A stretch of 64,000 nt of DNA from a virus. The notes under the pieces were generated by a model. That model worked only from the letters and a program-made list of their open reading frames with translations. It was not told the DNA's origin and ran no database searches. This document shows positions 581 through 58,142 of this stretch, piece after piece (within the stretch, counting starts at the first letter, position 1; every line of letters starts with the position of its first letter). The translations under genes were made by a program, and so were the position numbers. The stretch lies in IMG/VR virus record IMGVR_UViG_3300035698_025300. One strand, given 5' to 3'.

Positions 581-805
581 CTACTTAAAGTATTTCTGCT
601 GTCCGTCTCTCGCACTCATAAAAGTATCGGCGTCTAGAGCGATGACGATGGGCTTTCGACTGACCCATTTCTTCCCATCAAACAATCCTCGACCTTCCCA
701 ATACTTGCCAGATTTATTTTTACGCTTTGCGGTAATCTCACCGATTCTCCCGTTGCAGCAAACCGCGACGGACCCGATAATATCTGATTTGTTTTTAGCC
801 TTCAT
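581..805 (-). CDS. hypothetical protein
   Basis: ORF overlapping the kinase stop (coupled). Start probably at 805. Confidence 0.55.
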   Translation of the reverse strand: MKAKNKSDIIGSVAVCCNGRIGEITAKRKNKSGKYWEGRGLFDGKKWVSRKPIVIALDADTFMSARDGQQKYFK

Positions 806-14794: not shown

Positions 14795-14805
14795 GTAAAT
14801 AAAAA

Positions 14806-15054
14806 TATCAATACTATAGCCAGGATTCTGTTATCAGCATACATTTATCTCTTTCTGCGTCAACAAAAAGGCAAGAAAACTTGCCGCCCTCGACCCGCCC
14901 ATTGTAGAACAGCTTACCATCTAGGACTGTTTGAGGTTGCATATCGGGTCAATTCCCTATACGTGGTCCAAGCGACTTACATCTCCCACATTAAAGCTAG
15001 ATATGTCCTGAGCTTCCTCTATCACGATCGTGACAGCGTATGCTCGCATTGATA
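14806..15054 (-). ncRNA. rnpB: compact RNase P RNA
   Basis: P1 TATCAATGC/GTATTGATA, P2 AGCATAC/GTATGCT, P3 hairpin, P4 GAGGAAGCTCAGG paired with 3' ACAGAATCCTGGCTATA, helix ATCTAG/CTAGAT. Confidence 0.85.
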
Positions 15055-15057
15055 CAA

Positions 15058-15327: not shown

Positions 15328-15384
15328 AAAACCTATATTTAATTTTCAATACATTTTTATAAATTTCTATCAAATTTATGCATT

Positions 15385-15419
15385 AAAAAAGCCTACCGAA
15401 CTCATTTGTGCGGTAGGCT
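15385..15419 (-). terminator. attenuator terminator 1
   Basis: AGCCTACCG...CGGTAGGCT followed by a T-run; homologous to the 20487-20521 hairpin. Confidence 0.85.
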
Positions 15420-15458
15420 CATAAAAAATAACGTAAAGCTCTAACGCACTTCCTCCGC

Positions 15459-16833
15459 CAAGCACACTTCGATGGGGCACCCGTAGACGAGAAAGAGGCA
15501 GTGCTTCCATATCGGGGATTTGAGAAATACCAGTACATAGCCTACAAGTTCGGGCGCATTGCCAGAAAGCTGAACTACGTCAACAAATAGGCGCTATGGC
15601 ATTCCGAACAGACCAGGCCTGCTTTGGTCTTTGGTCTTCGGCTTCTGTCCAGCATTCCCGCAATGGTCGATGTCGGCAGGATCGTAGTTTGTCCAAAGGA
15701 CCTCGGTACGCTTGCCTTTCGTGGCGTGGTTGGTGCGTTCAGCGCTCCGAGTCCTATACCACTGGCATTCGGGATACAACTCTTCCATCAGGTCGCAATC
15801 GTAGTTGGAGATGGCAACGTGACCCACCACTGTATTCAGGACTGCTGCAAGCGCCCGGTGTTCGTCATCTGTCATTTCGAAGCCATAGGCCTTCGTGTCG
15901 CCTCGGGTTGCGTGGATATATGGAGGATCACAGTAGAAAAGGGTATCGGGCGAATCATATAGGAGGATAACGTCAATGGCTGGACGGTTCTCTATCTGAA
16001 CACGAATCAAGCGTTCCGCGATCGCAGGCAGTTGGTCAACTCCTCCGAGCCAACGGCTGATTACACCACTCATGCCGCGGCGACTAGTGTTCTTGCAGTT
16101 CGCCCACCTGCCTATCGTGGCTGTCTGTGCCAGGCCTGTTCGGACTTGGCGAGCGCGAATATAGAAGCGCCTGGCTCGTTCCAGAGGAGGTACATCCGGG
16201 TCCAAGACACATGCACTGCCAAATTCCTCTCTCGAAAAGGGCGTGAGAGCGATGGCCTCGATTAGCTTGTCCTTCTCATCTCTGAGTACGCGGAAGAAAT
16301 TGCAGACTTCACCGTCCAAGTCGTTGTATGTTTCGATGCTGGCGGGAGGCCGATTCAGAAGTACGGCGGCCGACCCGGAGAACGGCTCGCAATAGTGATG
16401 GCATGGCGGCAGCAATGGAAGAAGCCAGTCTAAGTGGCTAAACTTCCCCCCATACCAGCCGAATGGGATCAGCTTCCGGCGTCCGAGCCGCTGTACGGGC
16501 GGGGCCAGCTTTCGTCCGTTCTTCTTTCTTTTCATTCCGTCCATGTGCAATTCCAAAAGGCAGTAAGTGATTTTCTAACTGTGCGTTACCGCCATTCCTA
16601 GGTGGTTAGGAAGTCGGTCCAGCAGTATTGATCAACTGTAACCCGTGCCAGCGGAAATTGCGAGGCTTTTCGTTACAGGCCCTACCAGATCGGACATCGG
16701 ACGAGCCCATTCCGCCGGGCGTCACGAGGCCTTGGAAGGCGTCTCCACTGGAGCCGCCGAGGCAACTCGGGATCGAAGGCCTTGGACCACTTCGCGCCAA
16801 CGCCTCTGGAGTTCCGTTTCGATGGAGCTCCGC
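15459..16833. mobile_element. 1375-bp GC-rich captured bacterial DNA segment flanked by a 6-bp direct repeat
   Basis: CTCCGC at 15453-15458 and 16828-16833; abrupt GC shift; truncated gene 3' ends at both sides. Confidence 0.8.
15594..16556 (-). CDS. DNA adenine methyltransferase (Dam/D12-class N6)
   Basis: FGWYGGK, YCEPFSGSAAV, YNDLD, FYCDPPY. Confidence 0.92.
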   Translation of the reverse strand: MELHMDGMKRKKNGRKLAPPVQRLGRRKLIPFGWYGGKFSHLDWLLPLLPPCHHYCEPFSGSAAVLLNRPPASIETYNDLDGEVCNFFRVLRDEKDKLIEAIALTPFSREEFGSACVLDPDVPPLERARRFYIRARQVRTGLAQTATIGRWANCKNTSRRGMSGVISRWLGGVDQLPAIAERLIRVQIENRPAIDVILLYDSPDTLFYCDPPYIHATRGDTKAYGFEMTDDEHRALAAVLNTVVGHVAISNYDCDLMEELYPECQWYRTRSAERTNHATKGKRTEVLWTNYDPADIDHCGNAGQKPKTKDQSRPGLFGMP

Positions 16834-16898
16834 TGTAAAGGCTTTAACCGCCCAAATAGTTTTAAAGAACATGTTGTTACGTGCGTTTTCCATGCTTC

Positions 16899-17031: not shown

Positions 17032-19092
17032 ATGTCCAATTTTAATAATTACAAAGGTTTTAAGATATTAGCAGGAACGCCAACAGGCGATGGTGGAAAA
17101 GCTTTAAATGAAAATTTCACCTACGCAGGAGATACGATAGAAGACGCAGGAGATACGATAGAAGAAAATAGTAATGACATCTTATCTCTAGAAAATAAAA
17201 GCACAATCAATTATTGGAGTTTTGACCTTTTGGGAGACTCAATATCAACTGTTAGCGGGAACCTGTGGTCTGGAACAATCACATATGGTAGCTGGGCAGA
17301 AATGGCTGCAATATTTTCAAACCAAAGGGTGCAGCTTGCTAATAGATTTGCTTCTGGCGGGTATAGCTCTCAAGAGATTATGAACAACTATTTATCTAGT
17401 GCTGTAGCTTCAGATTCTGATATGTGCGTCATCCACTGCGGGATTAATGATTGGGGGGATGGTATAGTTTCAACGACAACACTCCTTAATATTAGGACCA
17501 TGACAGATGCTCTAATAGCCGTTGGAAAAAAGGTCATTCTAACGACATTAATGCCAGATGGCTCGACGGCGGGACTGGACTCCAAGTGGCATGAATGGTA
17601 CCTGATTAACGAAGGAATAAGATCAATGGTACTAGAATATCCCGGTAAAGTTGTTTTAGCTGATTTCGCTAATGTTGTAATCGATATAGATGCAAATGTA
17701 AGTGGGCCGAGAGGAGATTCTATGGGTCATCCGTCCTGGAAGAGTGAATATAGTACCGACCTCGTACATCCAAAAGCTGGCCCAGCTACAAGAGAAATGG
17801 GTCGAGCACTATTAGAAGCCTTTGAGAGATTTTCTATTCCAAACGAGTATTTTTGGCTGGGCTCTACTGGGTCAATTAATGGTGTCCACAACCCGCTTTG
17901 TTTTGGAGAGGACGGGAGCTTGGCTGGAGGGGCGACCGGAACGGCTCCAGACTGGTGGAAATTTGAGGGGAATTCTGATTGGGTTTCGTATGTATCAGCC
18001 AGAACAGGAAACCAAAGCCGAAGCAATTGGTTCTCAGCAACTATGGACGCCACAGTTGCGCCGGCAAGCTTAACACAGCCTTCTATAAGACTCCAGGATG
18101 GCGTGTATAAAGTATACCTCGACATAGAAATACCAATAGGAGCAGAAGCCAATAACTCTGATAGCTATATCCAATTATTTTATCAAGACTCAGATGGAAG
18201 TCCAATTGAAGTTTATAACGCTAGATATTTTCAAAACGAGGCATTAATAGATTCCGAAAATGGATTTTCTGGAACGCTCAAAGGTAATGTAACCATCAAC
18301 AGCGGTGATACTAATGTTAAGTTACTTTTACTCATTTCTGGTATTTCTGATGTTTCTGTTTCTGGACTAAGATTCGAAACCGTCACAGATAGCTCTTCTG
18401 TTAGAAATGTATTAGATTTTGACGGGGCAGGATTCATCGGCACTGACCTGACTGTTCCTATTGTTTCGGGCGTTTTTCCGGCTACTACTGGATGGACGAT
18501 AGAAGCCTGGGTGAATGCGGTAGAAGCTAGAATAGAAAGCGGAATTGTTACAAATAAAATAAGAGGAATATGTAGCGGATGGCAAAATATATGTCCGTTT
18601 TTTGGGATTAATGAAAATAATTATTTTGAACTATCTGCTCACATAAATAATAATATCTTTAAAGACGATAGCTCAGTTCTTGCCCCAGATGGGTCTGGCT
18701 ACGGGTGGCATCATTACGCTGTTACAGTTTCAAATAATGGAGGGAATACTGATATTATATACTATTATGACGGGATAAAAATAGGATCAACTGTCACTAC
18801 GGCGGGAAACCTGACAAACAACTCCGCGTATGAAGGATTAAATTATATTGGGAAATCTGCTGGATCAGTTGGGATATTAGGGTCTATTGCGGGTTTTGGA
18901 ACACGCCCATCTCCAGCGACACCGGCGGAAATAGCTACGGCATACGCAGAAGGGCTAGGGACTTTGACAGATTATGACATGTACCTAAGATGCGATGACG
19001 GATCTGGAACTACTGTCACAGATTCAACGGTAAATGAAAATGATGTAACATTGCCAGCATCTGGAGCTGCTTGGGGAACTGACGTTGTTTGA
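17032..19092 (+). CDS. SGNH/GDSL hydrolase plus LamG-like domain protein, probable virion appendage
   Basis: GDSIS, CGINDW, D.VHP; C-terminal WTIEAWV...WHHYAVT LamG pattern. Confidence 0.75.
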   Translation: MSNFNNYKGFKILAGTPTGDGGKALNENFTYAGDTIEDAGDTIEENSNDILSLENKSTINYWSFDLLGDSISTVSGNLWSGTITYGSWAEMAAIFSNQRVQLANRFASGGYSSQEIMNNYLSSAVASDSDMCVIHCGINDWGDGIVSTTTLLNIRTMTDALIAVGKKVILTTLMPDGSTAGLDSKWHEWYLINEGIRSMVLEYPGKVVLADFANVVIDIDANVSGPRGDSMGHPSWKSEYSTDLVHPKAGPATREMGRALLEAFERFSIPNEYFWLGSTGSINGVHNPLCFGEDGSLAGGATGTAPDWWKFEGNSDWVSYVSARTGNQSRSNWFSATMDATVAPASLTQPSIRLQDGVYKVYLDIEIPIGAEANNSDSYIQLFYQDSDGSPIEVYNARYFQNEALIDSENGFSGTLKGNVTINSGDTNVKLLLLISGISDVSVSGLRFETVTDSSSVRNVLDFDGAGFIGTDLTVPIVSGVFPATTGWTIEAWVNAVEARIESGIVTNKIRGICSGWQNICPFFGINENNYFELSAHINNNIFKDDSSVLAPDGSGYGWHHYAVTVSNNGGNTDIIYYYDGIKIGSTVTTAGNLTNNSAYEGLNYIGKSAGSVGILGSIAGFGTRPSPATPAEIATAYAEGLGTLTDYDMYLRCDDGSGTTVTDSTVNENDVTLPASGAAWGTDVV

Positions 19093-19099
19093 GTTTTTA

Positions 19100-19173
19100 T
19101 ACCCGTACACGGATTCGAACCGAGATTAACAGCTTGAAGGGCTGTCGTCCTAAACCACTTAGACGATACGGGC
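19100..19173 (-). tRNA. tRNA-Glu(TTC)
   Basis: Loop CCTTCAA. Confidence 0.88.
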
Positions 19174-19177
19174 GTAT

Positions 19178-19942
19178 TTAGTATCCAATTTTATTATTAA
19201 ATATAGGTTTCATCCTACATTTAGAATCACCAGTAAAATGTAAAAGATCAAAATCCATAAATAGTTTTTTTGTTTTTTTTGTAGACGGGTAATAGCCAAT
19301 TTTTATATTACATTCTACTCCATCATAAATATTGTTGTATATCATATAATTAAAAGCTGTTTGATCATATGAGTTTGAACTTCTATATCTTTTGCCATTT
19401 TTTATTAAATCAAGCCAAATATCAAACATATGAGACAAATATTTAGAATTTATTGCGAAAAAACCAGCATTTATCCCACGAATACCACTCATTTTATTTA
19501 ACCGTTTTCTACTAAACATCTGATTATGCCAGGAATTGTTTTTCAGAAGACAGTCTTCTAAAACGTATTTAACTTTCCCATTATCTAATCCATTAAATAT
19601 ATTATGAATTTTTTTACAAAATAAAATATCTGCGTCTACAAACATTATGTTTTTATACTTATTTGGGTCTATCATTCTACCACAAGCTATCTTCATATAT
19701 CGATCATCATTTGGAGTTTGCTTAACTTTGAAAATTTTATAGTATCCGCTATTGTCGCACTGGCAATCTGTGAATATTATTATATCTCCATCAAATTTTC
19801 CTTTCTTCCTAGCCGAGATAGCGCACATTTTTGCCATCTCAAAATGTTTTTCTCCAAGACCGACAGTATACATAACACTGTTTTCTTTTGATTTATTTGT
19901 ATAATGCAAAGTGACTCTTTCCATCATTTTATCATGCCACAT
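19178..19942 (-). CDS. GT-A glycosyltransferase (GT8-like)
   Basis: FVDADIL, INAGFF, DQTAFN, HFTG. Confidence 0.75.
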   Translation of the reverse strand: MWHDKMMERVTLHYTNKSKENSVMYTVGLGEKHFEMAKMCAISARKKGKFDGDIIIFTDCQCDNSGYYKIFKVKQTPNDDRYMKIACGRMIDPNKYKNIMFVDADILFCKKIHNIFNGLDNGKVKYVLEDCLLKNNSWHNQMFSRKRLNKMSGIRGINAGFFAINSKYLSHMFDIWLDLIKNGKRYRSSNSYDQTAFNYMIYNNIYDGVECNIKIGYYPSTKKTKKLFMDFDLLHFTGDSKCRMKPIFNNKIGY

Positions 19943-19980
19943 AATCAGCGTTTATCCTTTACGAAACTACAAATAAAGAA

Positions 19981-20055
19981 CACCCCTAATCGGATTCGAA
20001 CCGATGTTAACAGACTGAGAATCTGTCGTCCTAAACCTAACTAGACGATAAGGGC
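19981..20055 (-). tRNA. tRNA-Glu(CTC)
   Basis: Loop TTCTCAG. Confidence 0.9.
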
Positions 20056-20074
20056 ATTACGCGAAAAATGTCAA

Positions 20075-20169
20075 CTCCCTAGCTAGGACTCGAACCTAGA
20101 ACCTGCTGGTTATTTATTGCGCTATTTAACGCATACAGCCAGCCGCTCTACCAATTAAGATACTAGGGA
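20075..20169 (-). tRNA. tRNA-Asn(GTT) with a 22-nt intron in the anticodon loop
   Basis: U1-A72, G73; removing 20113-20134 gives loop CTGTTAA. Confidence 0.75.
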
Positions 20170-20175
20170 ATAAGA

Positions 20176-20266
20176 CTCCAGGGGGAGGACTCGAACCTCC
20201 ATACCGTTCTAGACGGATTACGTCTGATTAACAATCAGGTCACTTACCCAATTAGTGTACCCCAGA
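20176..20266 (-). tRNA. tRNA-Asn(GTT) with long variable arm
   Basis: Loop TTGTTAA, 22-nt variable region, U1-A72, G73. Confidence 0.8.
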
Positions 20267-20345
20267 ATATGTAATATTTACTTGTCATTATTTCGCACTG
20301 ATGTTTCTTTTAAACATCTTTCCAGTTTATATCCATCAAAAAAAG

Positions 20346-20418
20346 GGCGACTAACCAGATTCGAACTGGCCCCCACAGATTCACAGTCTATTATGCTAAC
20401 CACTACACCATAGCCACC
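20346..20418 (-). tRNA. tRNA-His(GTG)
   Basis: G-1:C73, loop CTGTGAA. Confidence 0.92.
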
Positions 20419-20440
20419 GTATCAATATTTAATTTTCAAA

Positions 20441-20477
20441 ACAACGCGGCGCCTTAACCAATTGGGCCACGCTCACC
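20441..20477 (-). pseudogene. 5' half of a tRNA (His-like), truncated at the anticodon loop
   Basis: GGTGAGCGTGGCCCAATTGGTTAAGGCGCCGCGTTG with no 3' half. Confidence 0.6.
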
Positions 20478-20486
20478 ATGTATATT

Positions 20487-20521
20487 AAAAAAGCCTACCG
20501 AACGTTTCTGCTCGGTAGGCT
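20487..20521 (-). terminator. attenuator terminator 2
   Basis: AGCCTACCGA...TCGGTAGGCT followed by a T-run. Confidence 0.88.
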
Positions 20522-20543
20522 CATAAAAATCTATGCTTATGAC

Positions 20544-20621
20544 TTAACGCACGAATACCTCTTCAGCGGTTTCTTCCGCTTCGTTATGATTAAATTCATT
20601 ATGGTTTCGTGCAAAAGTCAT
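20544..20621 (-). CDS. leader peptide 2, MTFARNHNEFNHNEAEETAEEVFVR
   Basis: RBS AAGGA; 25 codons between promoter and terminator. Confidence 0.8.
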   Translation of the reverse strand: MTFARNHNEFNHNEAEETAEEVFVR

Positions 20622-20641
20622 AGTAATTTTCCTTATGTCTT

Positions 20642-20670
20642 ATTATATGATACTGAACATCAGCAAGCAA
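20642..20670 (-). promoter_or_regulatory. sigma70 promoter of leader 2
   Basis: TTGCTT-17-TATAAT. Confidence 0.8.
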
Positions 20671-20716
20671 CTTCTTTCTTAAAAAATCTTTGTTCGTTCT
20701 CTATTTATAAAAATTA

Positions 20717-20787
20717 AGCTCTCGGAGGGGGTCGAACCCTCATCTCTGGTGTACGAGACCAGTATGCTCCCCTTGCACCACAAGAGC
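20717..20787 (-). tRNA. tRNA-Thr(CGT)
   Basis: Loop CTCGTAC. Confidence 0.88.
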
Positions 20788-20830
20788 GTCAAACAACATT
20801 ATATTATAGTATATTATTTTTTATATGCAA

Positions 20831-21895
20831 TTATTTTCTATTAAAAACAACAGAGGCATAACATCTTGACGGTCGATCTCTTTTTATCCTATACTTGGAG
20901 ATACTTTTAGTGTCTTTGCTTAAGTGTTCCCAAAAATCGTATAAATTGTTTCTATAATTTTCATTATATATAAGATGAATTAATAGGGATGAAATTCCTT
21001 TTGGGCTAAGATACTTTTCCCATGTTTCTTTTGATTTTTTTGCAAAAGGTTCTGGGTCTATTTCTTTTAAGACCAAAAGATCTGATGGAGAGTTAATATA
21101 TACATAATGTTCATTGGGGTAAAATGGGAACGGATAGCATGGTATATAGTTAAAAGCCAAAGGCATGCCGAGTGACATATATTCCGTTTCCCTGTAGCAT
21201 TTTCCATCATATTTAGTACTTGAACCGCGAAGGGAAAACCCCCATTTACATTTTTCTAAACTGTCTACATATTCGGATTTATTTTTATGGAATTTAGGGT
21301 AAAATAGTCCAGATTTTTTAGCGTGATCAACCCAAGGTCTTCTGTGGCCTCTATTTCTATCCACAGTAAAAGCAGAGCTTCCTAAATATTTGTGATTTTC
21401 GTTCTTCCATAAAAATCTCCCAACAGGAAAATTTTTACTAACCCCATAAGCAAAAGGTAAAATCTTAAATCCATATTTTTCTTCAATAGACGTAAACAGA
21501 TCTTTATGTTTAAGTGTATATTGCAATATGAAATAAAATTTGATACCTCTAAATAGTTCTTCATAATTCTCAACAAAACTGTGAGATATGTGTGGTACGT
21601 CGTGGCCGTCTAATATACAGTTTATATTATTTATTCTTATTTTATATAAATGATCACCAATATATTTCATTTTTCTAACGCTTCTCTTCAACAACTGCGA
21701 AACGGTTACGTTTTTGAAAATTCCACTATTCCGAAAACAGTCATTAAAATAACGAAAATTATAGTTGCGACCAGGGTTTGACACAGTTAAACTGTGTTGA
21801 GTTTTTTCAAAATGACTAAAATCATATTTGCTAAACACTCTATTATTAAAATGATATTTTAGATTAGACCGTCTAGACATAAAACCTCTTCGCAC
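20831..21895 (-). CDS. putative glycosyltransferase (GT-B-like C-terminus)
   Basis: EYVDSLEKCKWGFSLRG...CYRETEYMSLGMP pattern; gene context. Confidence 0.55.
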   Translation of the reverse strand: MRRGFMSRRSNLKYHFNNRVFSKYDFSHFEKTQHSLTVSNPGRNYNFRYFNDCFRNSGIFKNVTVSQLLKRSVRKMKYIGDHLYKIRINNINCILDGHDVPHISHSFVENYEELFRGIKFYFILQYTLKHKDLFTSIEEKYGFKILPFAYGVSKNFPVGRFLWKNENHKYLGSSAFTVDRNRGHRRPWVDHAKKSGLFYPKFHKNKSEYVDSLEKCKWGFSLRGSSTKYDGKCYRETEYMSLGMPLAFNYIPCYPFPFYPNEHYVYINSPSDLLVLKEIDPEPFAKKSKETWEKYLSPKGISSLLIHLIYNENYRNNLYDFWEHLSKDTKSISKYRIKRDRPSRCYASVVFNRK

Positions 21896-34303: not shown

Positions 34304-34383
34304 TAAACATACTTTAATTATAATGATAGCATAAACCGCAAGTGCGAGCCATTTAGTAAAAAGAGAGTGACCCGCTACAGCGA

Positions 34384-34449
34384 TTATTGCTGATCGGGGT
34401 CTGGTTGTGTATCTTGATCGACGGTCTGATTGTAGTTAATCTTTGTCAT
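34384..34449 (-). CDS. leader peptide 4, MTKINYNQTVDQDTQPDPDQQ
   Basis: 21 codons immediately after a consensus promoter and before the Pro/Gln tRNAs. Confidence 0.75.
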   Translation of the reverse strand: MTKINYNQTVDQDTQPDPDQQ

Positions 34450-42574: not shown

Positions 42575-42694
42575 ATGAATACTGCAACACAACAATTTGA
42601 AGGCGTAGCTATAGTCAATAAGACTGTCTCGCAATCTTTGTATTCATCGTTATCCTATCTCTCTAGTAGTTTATCTAGTTATTGTTTGCTGTAA
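42575..42694 (+). CDS. leader peptide 3, MNTATQQFEGVAIVNKTVSQSLYSSLSYLSSSLSSYCLL
   Basis: RBS AGGA; 39 codons before the Leu/Tyr/Cys/Ser tRNA array. Confidence 0.8.
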   Translation: MNTATQQFEGVAIVNKTVSQSLYSSLSYLSSSLSSYCLL

Positions 42695-42701
42695 TCACGC
42701 A

Positions 42702-42751
42702 AACTCGGACGGCTAGAAAACGAATTCTCTGTATTCCCCGTTTGGGTTCTT
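42702..42751 (+). terminator. attenuator hairpin 3
   Basis: AACTCGGACGG/CCGTTTGGGTT with a short U-tract. Confidence 0.6.
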
Positions 42752-42775
42752 GACAAGTAAATAGTGTAAATATGC

Positions 42776-55097: not shown

Positions 55098-55241
55098 AAA
55101 AATAAAAGTATAAGGTTTGATTGTATGGGGCTTTGTACAAAAGAGCAGTTTTCGTCACGGAAGAAGAAGAGGATTCATTTCGGCCGATTTGTATGGATTG
55201 TATTGCAGGCCAACTTTTTGAAACAATTAATGGAGAAAAAT

Positions 55242-58142
55242 ATGTCAGGATTTTATTCTTATGAAGAGGCGGTCGAAGCCTCTTTGGAATATTTTAACGG
55301 AGACCGACTAGCAGCAGAGGCTTTTGTGGGGAAGTATGCTTTAAAGGACAAAGAAGAGCAATACTTAGAAAAAGACCCCGATCAAATGCATCGACGGGAA
55401 GCTAGGGAATTTTATAAGATAGAAAAGAAATACCCCAACCCTCTTTCCGAAGAAGAAATTTATTCTTACTTGAGCAATTTCGAATATATTATACCAGGCG
55501 GTTCTCAAATGTCTGGTATTGGTAATGATTTTAAGGTTCAGACTTTAGGGAATTGTTATGTTGTGAAACCCCCATATGATAGTTATGGCGGTTTGATGTA
55601 TTCTGATCAGCAGCTAGCTCAACTAATGAAGCGCCGAGCCGGTGCGGGAATTGATATTTCTCCATTACGCCCAAAGAATATGCTCGTTGCAAACGCTGCT
55701 GGGACCACAGACGGCATTGCTGTTTTTATGGAGAGATACTCCAATACTTGCAGGGAAGTTGCACAGAATGGACGTAGGGGGGCTCTGATGATTACCCTTA
55801 ATGTTCACCACCCAGAAATACTTAATTTTATAAACGTAAAAAGAGATTTAAATAAGGCTACCGGAGCTAATATCTCTGTTCGCTTTACGGACGAGTTTAT
55901 GAATGCTGTTGAGAATGATGAAAAATATAAACTTCGTTGGCCAGTTGACTCGAAAGAGCCAGTGGTTTCTGAGGATATTTCTGCAAAGCTTGTTTGGGAA
56001 GCTTTCGTTGATGCTTCTTGGACTTGCGCTGAGCCTGGGTGTCAATTTATAGATGCTATGAACAATAATTCTCCATCGCATTGTTATGGAGTAGTAGATG
56101 AACGATTTTACAATATAACTACAAATCCTTGCGTAACTGGAGGCACAGAGGTATTAACCGATAGAGGCAATATCCCTATAAGAGAGATCGTTAAAAATGG
56201 ATTTGATAATTATAAAGTTTATACTTATGATATATGTAGTGGCAATATAGAGACCGAAAGCATTGTTTTTGGGGGCTTGACTAAAGAGGAGGCTGATGTT
56301 ATAGAACTGGAACTGGATGATGGCGAAGTTTTGCGATTGACTCCTGATCATAAGGTTTATACTGAGAATCGGGGATACGTTAAGGCTTCAATGTTGGGCG
56401 AAGAAGATGTTATATTAAAAGTTGAGAGAATGGAAACAAAAAAGATTGTTAGAAAAAGAATAAAAAAAAATAGAGTCATTGAAAATGAAGATGTGTACGA
56501 TTTGACCGTAGAGAAAAATCATAATTTCTTCGCGAATGGAATATTGGTTCATAATTGCGGTGAAATTATTATGGGGGTTGACTCTTGCAGGCTGATGTCT
56601 ATTAATCTATATTCTTTCGTTGATAATCCTTTCGCCGAGAACGCTGTATTTGATTTTGAAAAGTTAGAAAAAATTTCAGGGATAGGTCAAAGGCTTATGG
56701 ATGATGTCGTTGATATGGAGATTGTTAAAATACAGAAAATCATAGAAAAAGTAAAATCGGATCCTGAACCAGAACATATTAAACAAATAGAATTAGATAT
56801 GTGGCAAGATTATTTGGACACATGCCAGTTAGGTCGCCGAACAGGTTTGGGGATTATGGGTCTGGCTGATGCTATGGCTGCTGTTAATGTTAAGTTTGGA
56901 TCTGAAGAATCTATAAAGATGACGGGCGAAATTTATAAAGTTTTAAATAGAGGGGCATATAAAGAGTCTATTAAGTTGGCAGAAGAAAGAGGGCCATTCC
57001 CTCTTTACAATAAAAAGATTGAAAAAGATAATGAATATCTAAATAGGGTTTTAGAAGCTCACGGATTGAAAAGTAAACACAATAAGGTTGGCCGTCGAAA
57101 CATCGCCCTACTCACTACTGCCCCAACAGGGACAGGAGCGTTAGAGGCTCAGGTCTCTTCTAGCGGAGAGCCAGTTTTTAGGGTGTCTTATAAGAGGAGG
57201 CGCAAAATCAACCCCTCAGATCGGCAGGCTACGGTAGATTTTGTAGATGACAGAGGGGATAAATGGCAAGAATACGTGGTGTATCATTCAAAGTTCCAAA
57301 TATGGATGGATGTTTCTGGAAAAGAAGAAATAGAAGATTCTCCTTACTTTCAGGCGACAGCCGACGATGTTGATTGGGGGGCTTCTGTAAAGATGCAGGC
57401 TGAAGCTCAAAAATGGATTTGCCATTCAATATCTAAGACGTGTAATCTCCCCAAAGAGGCGAGCAAAGAACTCGTTTCAGATATTTATATGGACGCTTGG
57501 AAGTCTGGCTGCAAGGGGTTTACTATTTATAGAGATGGTTGCAGAGACGGCGTGTTATTAGACCTGGAATCTGCTAATAATGCAGGTGGTATCACTAAAA
57601 ACGATGCTCCAAAACGCCCAAAGAAATTACGTGCAGACGTTTATCACATTAAGATTACTAAAAAATTAGATAAACCACGAACATTTGACTATTTAGTTTT
57701 AGTAGGATTGTTGAATGATGAGCCATATGAGGTTTTTGTGATGGAGAACGGTTCACTTCCGAGACATTACAAAAAAGGCGTAATTATCAAAGTGAAACGT
57801 GGACAATATCGTTTGGAGTTAGATGGGGATACAAAAAATAAATATTCTGTAAATAATATTTTAGATAGTACCACAGAGTTCGAAGACTCGTTAACCAGGT
57901 TAACGTCTACGGCCATTCGTCATGGAGTCGATATGTCATATGTTGTTCAGCAATTAGAAAAAGCAGAAGGTGATATGTGGTCATTTAGCAAGGCTGTGTC
58001 TAGGGCTTTAAAGAAGTATATAAAAGATGGAACCCATGTCACAGGAGATGTTTGCGGAAATCCAGATTGCGGCTCTAACGATTTGGTCCGGACGGAAGGC
58101 TGCGTGACTTGTGTTAGTTGTGGTCATAGTAAATGCTCTTAG
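55242..58142 (+). CDS. nrdJ: class II (B12-dependent) ribonucleotide reductase with mini-intein
   Basis: LGNC, RRGA, TTNP|intein|CGEI, RRTGLG, TAPTG, SISKTCN, C-terminal Zn ribbon; likely start MSGFYS. Confidence 0.92.
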   Translation: MSGFYSYEEAVEASLEYFNGDRLAAEAFVGKYALKDKEEQYLEKDPDQMHRREAREFYKIEKKYPNPLSEEEIYSYLSNFEYIIPGGSQMSGIGNDFKVQTLGNCYVVKPPYDSYGGLMYSDQQLAQLMKRRAGAGIDISPLRPKNMLVANAAGTTDGIAVFMERYSNTCREVAQNGRRGALMITLNVHHPEILNFINVKRDLNKATGANISVRFTDEFMNAVENDEKYKLRWPVDSKEPVVSEDISAKLVWEAFVDASWTCAEPGCQFIDAMNNNSPSHCYGVVDERFYNITTNPCVTGGTEVLTDRGNIPIREIVKNGFDNYKVYTYDICSGNIETESIVFGGLTKEEADVIELELDDGEVLRLTPDHKVYTENRGYVKASMLGEEDVILKVERMETKKIVRKRIKKNRVIENEDVYDLTVEKNHNFFANGILVHNCGEIIMGVDSCRLMSINLYSFVDNPFAENAVFDFEKLEKISGIGQRLMDDVVDMEIVKIQKIIEKVKSDPEPEHIKQIELDMWQDYLDTCQLGRRTGLGIMGLADAMAAVNVKFGSEESIKMTGEIYKVLNRGAYKESIKLAEERGPFPLYNKKIEKDNEYLNRVLEAHGLKSKHNKVGRRNIALLTTAPTGTGALEAQVSSSGEPVFRVSYKRRRKINPSDRQATVDFVDDRGDKWQEYVVYHSKFQIWMDVSGKEEIEDSPYFQATADDVDWGASVKMQAEAQKWICHSISKTCNLPKEASKELVSDIYMDAWKSGCKGFTIYRDGCRDGVLLDLESANNAGGITKNDAPKRPKKLRADVYHIKITKKLDKPRTFDYLVLVGLLNDEPYEVFVMENGSLPRHYKKGVIIKVKRGQYRLELDGDTKNKYSVNNILDSTTEFEDSLTRLTSTAIRHGVDMSYVVQQLEKAEGDMWSFSKAVSRALKKYIKDGTHVTGDVCGNPDCGSNDLVRTEGCVTCVSCGHSKCS
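56130..56555 (+). mobile_element. mini-intein (142 aa, no endonuclease)
   Basis: CVTGGTEVLT...TPDHKV...VYDLTV..NHNFFANGILVHN followed by Cys. Confidence 0.92.

Follow-up and report, generated by a model that had tools for sequence, protein, structure and literature searches.

A candidate family of leader-peptide attenuators before the tRNA genes of large uncultured phages and its Asn/His/Glu-rich member

A short element on the minus strand (20425–20670), lying directly before a tRNA block of an uncultured phage, was analyzed by folding and by comparison with its relatives. We propose, with a probability of roughly 0.6 and from sequence analysis, that it belongs to a family of ribosome-mediated transcription attenuators of the leader-peptide type, which stand before the tRNA genes of large uncultured phages. 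The element probably gates tRNA synthesis by sensing slow decoding. All coordinates refer to the window, i.e. the whole analyzed stretch of 64,000 nucleotides (IMG/VR record IMGVR_UViG_3300035698_025300). The original prediction described here a leader sensing Asn, His and Glu (N/H/E) with textbook 1:2, 2:3 and 3:4 pairing. The comparative evidence sustained an N/H/E leader which gates tRNAs via a terminator, but the textbook 2:3 helix did not hold for this copy.

Leader unit and downstream genes

The leader unit consists of the following features, given in the direction of transcription.

20665–20670 (−): -35 element TTGCTT of the leader promoter, read from the sequence
20642–20647 (−): -10 element TATAAT, 17 nt 3′ of the -35 and conserved in homologs
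20630–20634 (−): Shine-Dalgarno-like AAGGA, 8 nt 5′ of the AUG, read from the sequence
20544–20621 (−): leader ORF, 25 codons plus UAA, MTFARNHNEFNHNEAEETAEEVFVR (ORF call; frame conserved)
20603–20621 (−): segment 1, leader nt 1–19, AUG and codons 1–6, partner of segment 2 in both the minimum-energy and the centroid fold
20565–20580 (−): central hairpin AGCGG/CCGCU inside the ORF, codons 14–19 (folds)
20539–20559 (−): segment 2, last codons V-F-V-R, stop codon and AAGUCAU (folds)
20487–20522 (−): intrinsic terminator (3:4), 13-bp stem, 6-nt loop and U6 (terminator scan; fold of -22.6 kcal/mol)

The short ORF thus has its own promoter and a translation start signal, as is expected of a ribosome-mediated attenuator. 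The -35 agrees with the consensus at 3 of 6 positions and is hence absent from the promoter-scan list; a -35 of the form cTTG... is common to all aligned homologs, and the -10 TATAAT (TACAAT in the homolog L060) is found in every homolog at a -35/-10 spacing of 16–17 nt. The terminator, with arms GAGCCUACCGAGC/GUUCGGUAGGCUU followed by U6, was confirmed (20522–20487) and is the sole terminator-like site in 19000–21000. It lies between the leader ORF and the tRNAs, the position required for attenuation, and ends 9 nt before the first tRNA sequence.

The block behind the terminator contains the following features.

20446–20477 (−): tRNA-His relic, 5′ half, 9 nt past the U-tract (compared with the complete tRNA-His of L194 at the same position)
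20425–20439 (−): box TTGAAAATTAAATAT, 7 nt before tRNA-His, a possible internal promoter or processing signal (repeat copy elsewhere)
20345–20417 (−): tRNA-His(GTG) (ARAGORN and Rfam)
20174–20267 (−): tRNA-Asn(GTT), 94 nt (ARAGORN and Rfam)
20075–20169 (−): second tRNA-Asn, anticodon loop enlarged by about 22 nt (Rfam tRNA, 48.6 bits; not called by ARAGORN)
19980–20056 (−): tRNA-Glu(CTC) (ARAGORN and Rfam)
19178–19942 (−): glycosyltransferase family 8 (GT8) gene, 254 aa, between both Glu tRNAs (PF01501, E = 7.9e-8)
19100–19173 (−): tRNA-Glu(TTC), the last gene of the unit, followed by a convergent gene (ARAGORN and Rfam)

The predicted downstream order of a His 5′ half, His, Asn, Asn, Glu(CTC) and Glu(TTC) was therefore found, with the GT8 gene before the last of them; a protein search gave no exact record of the GT8 protein. 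The His relic is identical at 26/29 nt to the 5′ half of the L194 tRNA-His. An exact second copy of TTGAAAATTAAATAT occurs before tRNA-Phe (15335–15349), and variants occur before Asn and Leu. At 3 mismatches the box gives 24 matches, where shuffles lead one to expect 16.8, which is no enrichment. Only its two exact copies and its placement before tRNAs are notable. As an internal promoter it could make the tRNAs partly independent of the attenuator.

Sensor codons and their match to the tRNA cargo

The twelve N/H/E codons which had been claimed for residues 6–21 of the leader are all present there, and they are beyond chance: N/H/E make up 12/24 leader residues against a background of 14.3% (binomial P = 3.8e-5), and among the 332 small ATG ORFs (18–45 codons) of the window this leader is the only one with at least 50% N/H/E. 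According to the folds, 13 codons lie in neither the 1:2 helix nor the central hairpin; 12 of them are N/H/E, and each of the 12 can be decoded by the downstream anticodons GTG, GTT, TTC and CTC. Both the composition and its covariation with the cargo, as given below, are what the enrichment of regulatory codons in an attenuator should look like. A stall at Glu codons 20–21 would cover segment 2 and so favour termination, a consequence that counts against the model.

Seven leaders were collected in this family, i.e. the present copy (W_L2) and a split paralogue (W_L1, leader 1) in the window, and L005, L046, L060/L069, L194 and L290 on five other uncultured-phage contigs. The split paralogue is present as two parts, and its uninterrupted form is seen in the L046 homolog.

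16828–16893 (−): 5′ part of the paralogous leader 1, MENARNNMFFKTIWAVKAFTAE, ended by a GC-rich insertion (intact homolog on L046)
15385–15452 (−): 3′ part of the paralogous leader 1 (EVR and stop), carrying the antiterminator partner and the same terminator (folds and alignment)

The relatives were obtained by several routes. Relaxed patterns in viral and genome contigs, filtered by script, returned nearly all chance matches and one real relative, L194; a HMMER profile search led to one useful relative, L290, and the L060 contig was reached via a neighbouring protein. GenBank phages yielded a single trivial tRNA match only, and IMG/VR scans with three DNA patterns and one protein found no relatives. 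Searches with the 135-aa and 128-aa neighbour proteins returned only themselves, and no leaders were present on contigs reached via P0007–P0009. The sequence was seen in salt-lake DNA runs only and in no RNA runs, and the contigs of those runs miss 20414–20716. Quick folds of two more leaders, 3 and 4, were without a clean terminator switch (the fold of leader 3 started one base off).

All seven leaders keep an in-frame ORF, a promoter, the 1:2 core and the same terminator. The ORFs have 23–33 codons (69–99 nt), every length is a multiple of 3 and no in-frame stop occurs; the alternative frames hold stops, with the exception of frame +1 of the split paralogue, which is open. Short ORFs are common, as the 332 of 18–45 codons in the window demonstrate, and a chance ORF in an AT-rich spacer before an ordinary terminator might be suspected. 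This explanation is hardly credible given a frame kept through indels in seven homologs, a conserved promoter and start codon, and a composition (P = 4e-5) unique among those 332.

The codons of the leaders follow the tRNAs behind them. The leader codons match their own tRNA array better than permuted pairings do (5/720 for six leaders, 33/5040 for seven and 0/265 derangements), where these values are to be read with the shared ancestry of the homologs in mind, which leaves few independent events. Of 34 amino acids with a tRNA in an array, 33 are also present in the leader of that array. His codons are restricted to the five leaders with tRNA-His downstream, and Glu codons are confined to leaders with a downstream Glu tRNA, the exception being three in the split paralogue. 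Between two sister leaders, L005 (..ATEAHEEFVR; array His-Asn-Glu-Ala) and L290 (..ATKAHKGFVR; array His-Asn-Ala, which lacks a Glu tRNA), the differences lie precisely at the Glu codons. Every non-structural Arg codon of L060 is AGA, and a tRNA-Arg(TCT) is found downstream. In L005, L194 and L290 the tRNA-His starts 8–13 nt past the U-tract with no room for a promoter, and it would therefore be made only by read-through.

These relations bear on a further explanation, in which the unit is an independent small gene, for a micro-protein or a small RNA, that has a promoter and a terminator of its own and is merely located beside tRNA genes. The complete promoter-ORF-terminator unit and its very stable fold would suit such a gene. 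The middle of the peptide varies freely while its composition tracks the neighbouring tRNAs, the conserved peptide ends coincide with RNA helices, Rfam gave no match, and in the three relatives named above the tRNA-His follows the terminator without its own promoter; we regard a stand-alone gene as very improbable.

Alternative RNA structures

The helix 1:2, predicted between the 5′ end and the 3′ end of the leader, is indeed present in the minimum-energy fold, as AUGACUU.UGCACGAAACC with GGU.AUUCGUGCG..AAGUCAU. This fold has -55.8 kcal/mol (z = -8.1) and 0/200 shuffles were as stable. The helix has 7 + 11 bp, joins codons 1–6 with codons 21–25 and the stop, and thus overlaps the ORF as it should in an attenuator; the family-invariant GUGCGUUAA lies within segment 2. 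The central hairpin stands at the same place in every homolog with a different sequence (UGGGC/GCCCA in L005, L194 and L290; GGCCGCU/AGCGGUC in L060). The terminator arms AGCCUACCG/CGGUAGGCU are invariant across the family. In the full-leader fold the AAGGA pairs with UUUUUAUG beside the terminator.

The antiterminator is the weak part of this copy. The 2:3 helix of the original prediction (UCAUAA/UUAUGA plus GGUA/UACC) is negligible, with only -3.6 kcal/mol, -2.1 of which comes from a hairpin touching one terminator base. The best alternative which excludes the terminator pairs UUC-G-UGCGU with AC...GCAGAA, i.e. the top of the 5′ arm and the loop, at -8.0 to -8.9 kcal/mol. It is at chance level (z = +0.25 and -0.02; matched by 13–28% of dinucleotide shuffles of the same 39–42 nt), and most of the terminator 5′ arm stays available as a toehold. 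No other terminator in the family is as strong as that of this copy (-21.3 to -22.6 kcal/mol).

When segment 1 is masked before the 3′ arm has been made, every homolog forms a 2:3 structure with bases of the terminator 5′ arm. In 6/7 homologs this is built of the shared antiterminator helices GUGCG/CGCAY and GGC/GCC, at -11 to -19 kcal/mol, their terminators having -14 to -17; both helices are lost in this copy, which has GUC in place of GGC and CGAGCAGAA in place of the loop CGCAY. Three relatives (L005, L194 and L060) reach 2:3 z-scores of -2.2 to -4.1, and the E. coli attenuators trp, thr and his gave -2.9 to -3.3 when folded in this way. For W_L1, L046 and L290 the z-scores of -0.75 to -1.6 do not stand out clearly from shuffles. 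A 2:3 helix unable to compete with 3:4 had been named as the outcome that would overturn the original prediction; thermodynamically this copy comes close to that outcome, and the relatives extend to z = -4.1. The energy gap between antiterminator and terminator was tried as a measure and dropped; it is not used as evidence because it does not discriminate, the gap of E. coli his (-28.9 kcal/mol) exceeding that of this copy (-17.4 kcal/mol).

Because of its weak antiterminator and the strongest terminator of the family, this copy is expected to be either a tight switch with low read-through or partly decayed after the rearrangement from which the His relic remains. It is the weakest example of a family which as such fits the model. 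A stronger version of decay has to be weighed, in which the antiterminator was lost after a rearrangement truncating the ancestral tRNA-His, leaving a near-constitutive terminator or insulator, and the tRNAs are made from a downstream element such as the TTGAAAATTAAATAT box. The chance level of 2:3 and a terminator lengthened by GAGC/GUUC point that way, and so does the arrangement behind it, where the His relic lies directly past the terminator, ahead of the box and of a different tRNA-His; downstream of the split leader 1, this box likewise stands before tRNA-Phe. However, the leader was re-tuned to N/H/E after duplication (12/13 free codons, no Lys or Trp codons), with Trp changed to Glu and the central hairpin rebuilt, which argues for continued selection on the sensor. 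The box is also without recognisable -35/-10 geometry, the promoter scan gave nothing between the terminator and tRNA-His, and E. coli his demonstrates that an attenuator can regulate despite a large energy gap in favour of the terminator. In our view such a locked copy is rather unlikely.

It is also conceivable that the leader is translated and senses decoding while its output does not pass via 2:3, acting instead through RNA polymerase pausing, Rho access, or the processing or stability of the precursor. A weak 2:3 beside a strong sensor composition fits this, as does the conserved and covarying central hairpin, which has no role in a simple 1:2/2:3/3:4 scheme. Against it, six relatives retain the two-helix antiterminator clamping both ends of the terminator 5′ arm, and because they keep this specific clamp a 2:3 antiterminator is the simplest reading for the family; we consider the other outputs improbable.

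Proposed mechanism and known systems

In the proposed attenuator, a sigma-70-type promoter would give a short transcript, with a translated mini-gene occupying its first 78 nt. With no ribosome, or with a fast passage, segment 1 would pair with segment 2, the 13-bp terminator would form and transcription would stop 9 nt before the tRNA block. During slow decoding of Asn, His or Glu (codons 6–17) a stalled or queued ribosome would cover segment 1, and the freed segment 2 could pair with the upper 5′ arm and the loop of the terminator. Some polymerases would then read into His, Asn, Asn, Glu(CTC), the GT8 gene and Glu(TTC). The parts, their conservation, the kept frame and the codon/tRNA covariation are observed, and we infer the translation of the leader ORF, the stalling and the read-through. 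As the tRNA products match the tested codons, they would relieve the stall, which would give a negative feedback on decoding capacity and not on amino-acid supply.

On this basis, there is about an even chance that large phages regulate their own tRNA supply by feedback, each block being gated by a leader with the codons of that block and transcribed only at slow decoding. The cause of slow decoding could be a codon-usage mismatch, depletion of host tRNAs, or tRNA-cleaving defence systems. It belongs to the same evenly balanced proposal that the sensor evolves readily, where a duplicated leader would have been rewritten to Asn/His/Glu for a His-Asn-Glu block and Glu codons come and go with the Glu tRNA in sister phages.

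As a classic form of regulation, leader-peptide attenuation is to our knowledge known from operons of amino-acid biosynthesis and from pheST. The enterobacterial attenuators (thrL for Thr/Ile; ilvL for Ile/Val/Leu; trpL, hisL, pheL and leuL) have the same order of a promoter, a codon-rich short leader, 1:2/2:3/3:4 pairing and a terminator before the genes, and a single leader of the thrL/ilvL type senses several amino acids, as the phage leader is proposed to do. In the folding test given above, L005, L194 and L060 resemble the trp, thr and his attenuators of E. coli. The classical operon attenuators (trp, his, thr, leu, pheA and ilv) regulate biosynthesis enzymes, whereas the phage leader precedes five tRNA genes and a glycosyltransferase gene; since the regulated genes are tRNAs and not biosynthetic enzymes, the phage loop would report decoding capacity. 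The phage leader further differs in having segment 1 at the very start of the ORF including the AUG, the regulatory codons between segments 1 and 2, and an extra conserved hairpin inside the ORF. It has no sequence or Rfam relationship to the enterobacterial leaders, and in this copy the antiterminator is at chance level. The Rfam leader families (His_leader, Thr_leader, Trp_leader, Leu_leader and others) and the T-box gave no match at gathering score in the window, and the best Rfam matches in 20400–20720 were unrelated small-RNA models with E of at least 0.4.

Two further systems act on translation-related genes. In E. coli the phenylalanyl-tRNA synthetase gene pheST is under a leader-peptide attenuator which senses one amino acid and is cellular. 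It likewise applies leader-peptide attenuation to the translation apparatus, with the difference that a synthetase is regulated, through one amino acid, and not in a phage. T-box riboswitches bind uncharged tRNA directly by a specifier loop and the T-box sequence, with no translated leader. They share with the proposed attenuator a transcription attenuation of translation-related genes which responds to the state of a specific tRNA, and no T-box feature is found here by Rfam.

If true, the proposal means that attenuation logic controls phage tRNA genes themselves, with one leader testing several codon families, and it explains how tRNA-rich phages dose their tRNAs. It would also provide a sequence rule (leader codons equal cargo) for predicting co-regulated tRNAs, and a natural readout of codon-specific decoding stress in infection, which bears on tRNA-targeting defence systems. 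In full-text literature searches and in the genome paper of Caulobacter phage phiCbK, no description of a leader-peptide attenuator before phage tRNA genes was found.

In the phiCbK record (JX100813), GenBank annotates rho-independent terminators immediately before tRNA blocks. The mini-ORFs that precede these terminators favour the amino acids of their block. One phiCbK mini-ORF has 23/44 P/K/L/S before a Pro-Pro-Lys-Lys-Leu-Leu-Leu-Ser-Ser block, and another, QFVRQIQVVRNI, precedes a Phe-Val-Ile-Ile-Val-Gln-Gln block, where in both cases composition only was compared; the Glu/Asp unit has a poor composition match (3/19). These units are of unrelated sequence, in a GC-rich genome of a different phage group, and the likeness is one of composition. 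Because the design of gating tRNAs would also be present in the cultured phiCbK, it can be tested at the bench.

Leader unit and its relatives

The leader studied here (leader 2) is a short ORF rich in Asn, His and Glu (N/H/E) codons, and the elements of its unit were located as follows.

20670-20665, minus strand: -35 element TTGCTT, 17 nt before TATAAT
20647-20642, minus strand: -10 element TATAAT
20634-20630, minus strand: AAGGA, 8 nt to the ATG
20621-20544, minus strand: leader ORF, ATG start, 25 codons, MTFARNHNEFNHNEAEETAEEVFVR
21 nt past the ORF, minus strand: terminator GAGCCUACCGAGC-AGAAAC-GUUCGGUAGGCUU followed by U6
20446-20477, minus strand: 5'-half relic of tRNA-His, 32 nt, 9 nt past the U-tract
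20425-20439, minus strand: 15-nt box TTGAAAATTAAATAT, between the His relic and tRNA-His
Downstream genes in order (cargo): tRNA-His, tRNA-Asn, second tRNA-Asn (Rfam only), tRNA-Glu(CTC), a family-8 glycosyltransferase gene, tRNA-Glu(TTC)

The terminator is the only terminator-like site within 19000-21000. The leader RNA folds at -55.8 kcal/mol, which is 8.1 standard deviations under its shuffles, and in this fold the ORF start AUGACUU.UGCACGAAACC is paired with the ORF end GGU.AUUCGUGCG..AAGUCAU (helix 1:2) alongside the terminator (helix 3:4). The leader ORF, both helices and the downstream gene order of the original prediction were thus all recovered by sequence, fold and tRNA scans. Both tRNA-Asn genes are oversized (20075-20169 and 20174-20267, minus strand); one, the Rfam-only gene, has about 22 extra nt within the anticodon loop, and the other, which carries a long extra arm, measures 94 nt.

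Homologous leaders were found in contigs of other uncultured phages. L005, a 2.6-kb contig, was reached via the protein upstream of the leader (52% protein identity) and has a homologous leader followed by His, Asn, Glu and Ala tRNAs; four further relatives (L046, L194, L290 and L060/L069, the last a 433-kb phage contig) came from pattern scans and a profile search. Together with leader 2 and its split paralogue in the window (leader 1; 16893-16828 and 15452-15385, minus strand) they make a set of seven. All seven have a promoter (cTTG... -35, TATAAT or TACAAT -10, spacing 16-17 nt), an ATG, an invariant GUGCGUUA(A/G) at the stop codon and invariant terminator arms AGCCUACCG and CGGUAGGCU with U6-7. 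Translation-start types vary: two are leaderless (5 nt from TATAAT to ATG), three are of AAGGA type and two are neither. The ORFs have 23, 24, 24, 25, 25, 27 and 33 codons with no in-frame stop, and the remaining two frames carry stops, except for the open frame +1 of the split paralogue. The leader frame is preserved across several indels, which argues that these ORFs are probably translated and are not chance ORFs.

About 1.37 kb of GC-rich DNA (15453-16827, minus strand), inserted after codon 22, interrupts leader 1; the insertion carries a 320-aa ORF and has GCGGAG at both flanks. The L046 leader is the uninterrupted form of leader 1, and this intact homolog (MKNTRINNMKTIWATKAFKGNVR, same terminator) confirms that leader 1 was formerly continuous. 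In L060 a second ORF of 31 codons, MFKVQIDGRWQRADYITAVMFFVKRLPVMLV, with a strong AAAGGAG site (584-679, minus strand; L069 11197-11292), is called by gene callers between the leader terminator and the first tRNA (Trp).

Leader codons and downstream tRNAs

Of the 24 residues after Met1, 12 are Asn, His or Glu, a share that is 14.3% in the 50 long ORFs of the window (binomial 3.8e-5). The six frames contain 332 ATG-started ORFs with 18-45 codons, and this leader is the only one with at least 50% N/H/E. Almost all of its other codons lie in paired regions of the fold, namely codons 1-5 (segment 1), 15, 18 and 19 (central hairpin) and 22-25 (segment 2); outside these regions 12 of 13 codons are N/H/E. 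All 12 can be decoded by the anticodons encoded downstream.

Leader sequences and the tRNAs encoded downstream
Leader	Sequence	tRNAs in order
This leader	MTFARNHNEFNHNEAEETAEEVFVR	His, Asn, Asn, Glu, Glu
L005	MTARINNIMFTFNWATEAHEEFVR	His, Asn, Glu, Ala, then contig end
L290	MKTTRIHNMFAFNWATKAHKGFVR	His, Asn, Ala, Phe, Thr
L194	MTRNHNKMFFYFWAKSAFFGTTNNKAHMWGFVR	His, Asn, Ala, Phe, Thr, Lys, Trp
L046	MKNTRINNMKTIWATKAFKGNVR	Phe, Thr, Lys, Lys, Thr, Trp, Ala
Split leader 1	MENARNNMFFKTIWAVKAFTAEEVR	Phe, Ala, Phe, Thr, Lys x3, Thr, Trp, Ala, Ile, Val x3, Gly, Arg x2
L060	MKRTRHNYMFINQWAARTAVKGRRTVR	Trp, His, Tyr, Gln, Arg, Arg, Lys, Gln

Across the family, 33 of 34 amino acids with a tRNA in an array are also present in that array's leader; the true leader-array pairing outperforms permuted ones, at 5/720 with six leaders, 33/5040 with seven, and 0/265 derangements. 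His codons are confined to the five leaders having tRNA-His downstream. The near-identical leaders of L005 and L290 differ exactly at the Glu codons of L005, and tRNA-Glu is found in L005 only. This leader has neither Lys or Trp codons nor the corresponding tRNAs downstream, and both kinds of codon are present in the three leaders whose arrays include Lys as well as Trp tRNAs. Because the leaders share ancestry, these matches represent few independent events, all in one direction.

Three other candidate leaders of the window, noted in the original prediction, each show enrichment for the amino acids of their own cargo and none for those of the others. Leader 3 (42575-42775, plus strand) is S/L/Y/C-rich and precedes Leu-Leu-Tyr-Cys-Ser... 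tRNAs (cargo match P = 2e-5), and leader 4 (34304-34449, minus strand) is Q/P/D-rich and precedes Pro-Gln-Pro-Gln tRNAs (P = 1e-4). Neither is related to leader 2 by sequence, and quick folds gave no clean terminator switch for either.

No Rfam family matches the leader. Among known systems, the multivalent leader-peptide attenuators of amino-acid operons come nearest, together with the pheST attenuator; here, in contrast, the cargo is tRNA genes, the owners are phages and segment 1 lies on the start codon. Leader-peptide attenuation of tRNA genes was not found described in a full-text literature search. In Caulobacter phage phiCbK (JX100813, 47000-52800) predicted rho-independent terminators are annotated in GenBank directly upstream of three tRNA blocks, and the mini-ORFs before the terminators, gp083 and a 32-codon ORF that lacks annotation, show enrichment for the amino acids carried by the following tRNAs; the phiCbK genome paper mentions neither leaders nor attenuation.

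Antiterminator folding and proposed mechanism

Each leader was folded as it would stand immediately before synthesis of the terminator 3' arm, either masking the first 30 nt or placing a ribosome footprint on each codon. In six leaders out of seven, GUGCG of segment 2 pairs with CGCAC/CGCAU at the top of the terminator 5' arm and loop, and the bases right after the stop (AGGC, AGGU, UAG.GCU) pair with GCCU at the foot of that arm, which is so clamped at both ends. These structures reach -11 to -19 kcal/mol, against -14 to -17 for the terminators. When the 42 nt upstream of the terminator arm were shuffled, z was -3.4 for L005, -4.1 for L194 and -2.2 for L060, compared with -3.05, -2.9 and -3.3 for the E. 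coli trp, thr and his attenuators (MG1655 record) in the same test; it was weaker for leader 1, L046 and L290 (-0.75 to -1.6).

The present copy stands apart as the outlier. After the stop it has GUC in place of GGC, a change that extends helix 1:2 to AUGACUU/AAGUCAU at the cost of the clamp foot, and its loop has become CGAGCAGAAACGUU, by which the terminator is longer and CGCAY is gone. Its best alternative, UUC-G-UGCGU with AC...GCAGAA, reaches -8.0 to -8.9 kcal/mol and is at shuffle level (z = +0.25, -0.02), and the terminator reaches -21.3 to -22.6. The 2:3 helix which had been called textbook in this copy is worth just -3.6 kcal/mol. In these folds the family matches the attenuator model well, and "textbook" is not an apt word for this member.

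We consider it likely, with a probability of about 0.7, that the family works by ribosome-position attenuation. Segment 1 contains the AUG, so translation would have to start before segment 2 is transcribed. Without early translation, helix 1:2 and then 3:4 would form and the transcript would end, so that the switch is off by default. With its A site at codons 4-10, a ribosome would cover segment 1 and leave segment 2 free for segment 3; at codons 11-19 a second ribosome could load and queue over segment 1, again leaving segment 2 free for segment 3; and from codon 20 onwards segment 2 would be covered and the terminator would form. The N/H/E codons at 6-17 fall within this predicted antitermination window, and the Glu codons 20-21 fall outside it.

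The chances that this copy still responds are about even. Strong retuning of its codons after duplication and a rebuilt central hairpin (UGGGC/GCCCA to AGCGG/CCGCU) argue for continued selection on it; its antiterminator is weak and its His relic rearranged, which speaks for decay or a very tight setting. The central hairpin within the ORF (20565-20580) is kept in every homolog via differing sequences: UGGGC/GCCCA (Trp-Ala...Ala codons) in L005, L194 and L290, AGCGG/CCGCU in the window and GGCCGCU/AGCGGUC in L060. This hairpin may act in pausing; the simple three-helix scheme assigns it no role.

Predicted read-through and tRNA-proximal elements

In L005, L194 and L290 the U-tract is 8-13 nt from the start of tRNA-His, a gap too small for a promoter; tRNA-His of these contigs can hence be made only by terminator read-through, and the terminator must then be conditional. 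At this position the window has the truncated His relic, which shares 26 of 29 nt with the beginning of the complete tRNA-His at the equivalent position in L194. The relic marks a rearrangement that introduced a different tRNA-His.

The distance from the box TTGAAAATTAAATAT to tRNA-His is 7 nt, and an exact second copy of the box (15335-15349, minus strand) stands 6 nt before the first tRNA (Phe) behind leader 1. Variants (TTGACAAGTAAATA) precede Asn and Leu tRNAs (20274-20288, minus strand; 42750-42764, plus strand); the distance from box end to tRNA 5' end is 6-12 nt for His, Phe, Asn and Leu, and similar TAAATAT motifs precede the Asn tRNAs of L005 and L194. The box could serve a non-sigma-70 polymerase as promoter or could direct processing, and in either case part of the tRNA output would bypass the leader. 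Because several sigma-70-like promoters lie further down the arrays, the leader probably gates the proximal tRNAs only.

Between the Phe and Thr(TGT) tRNAs lies a non-coding stretch (about 14795-15057, minus strand; about 900-1100 in L290) that has ACAGAAUCCUGGCUA directly upstream of tRNA-Thr in both phages, which suggests a conserved structured RNA; Rfam at gathering score gave no match to RNase P or any other family there.

The window reads as a portion of a large uncultured phage. Its GC content is low (33-47%), and among sequencing runs its DNA was found in salt-lake metagenomes only. ARAGORN gave 37 tRNA genes and a tmRNA, and the Rfam scan confirmed the tmRNA and added three further tRNA matches; other genes include an intein-containing ribonucleotide reductase, an AAA ATPase, a protein kinase-like gene and glycosyltransferases. 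The intein splits the reductase large subunit (55125-58142, plus strand), and the phage tmRNA (30433-30785, minus strand) encodes the short tag ANNAKAAA.
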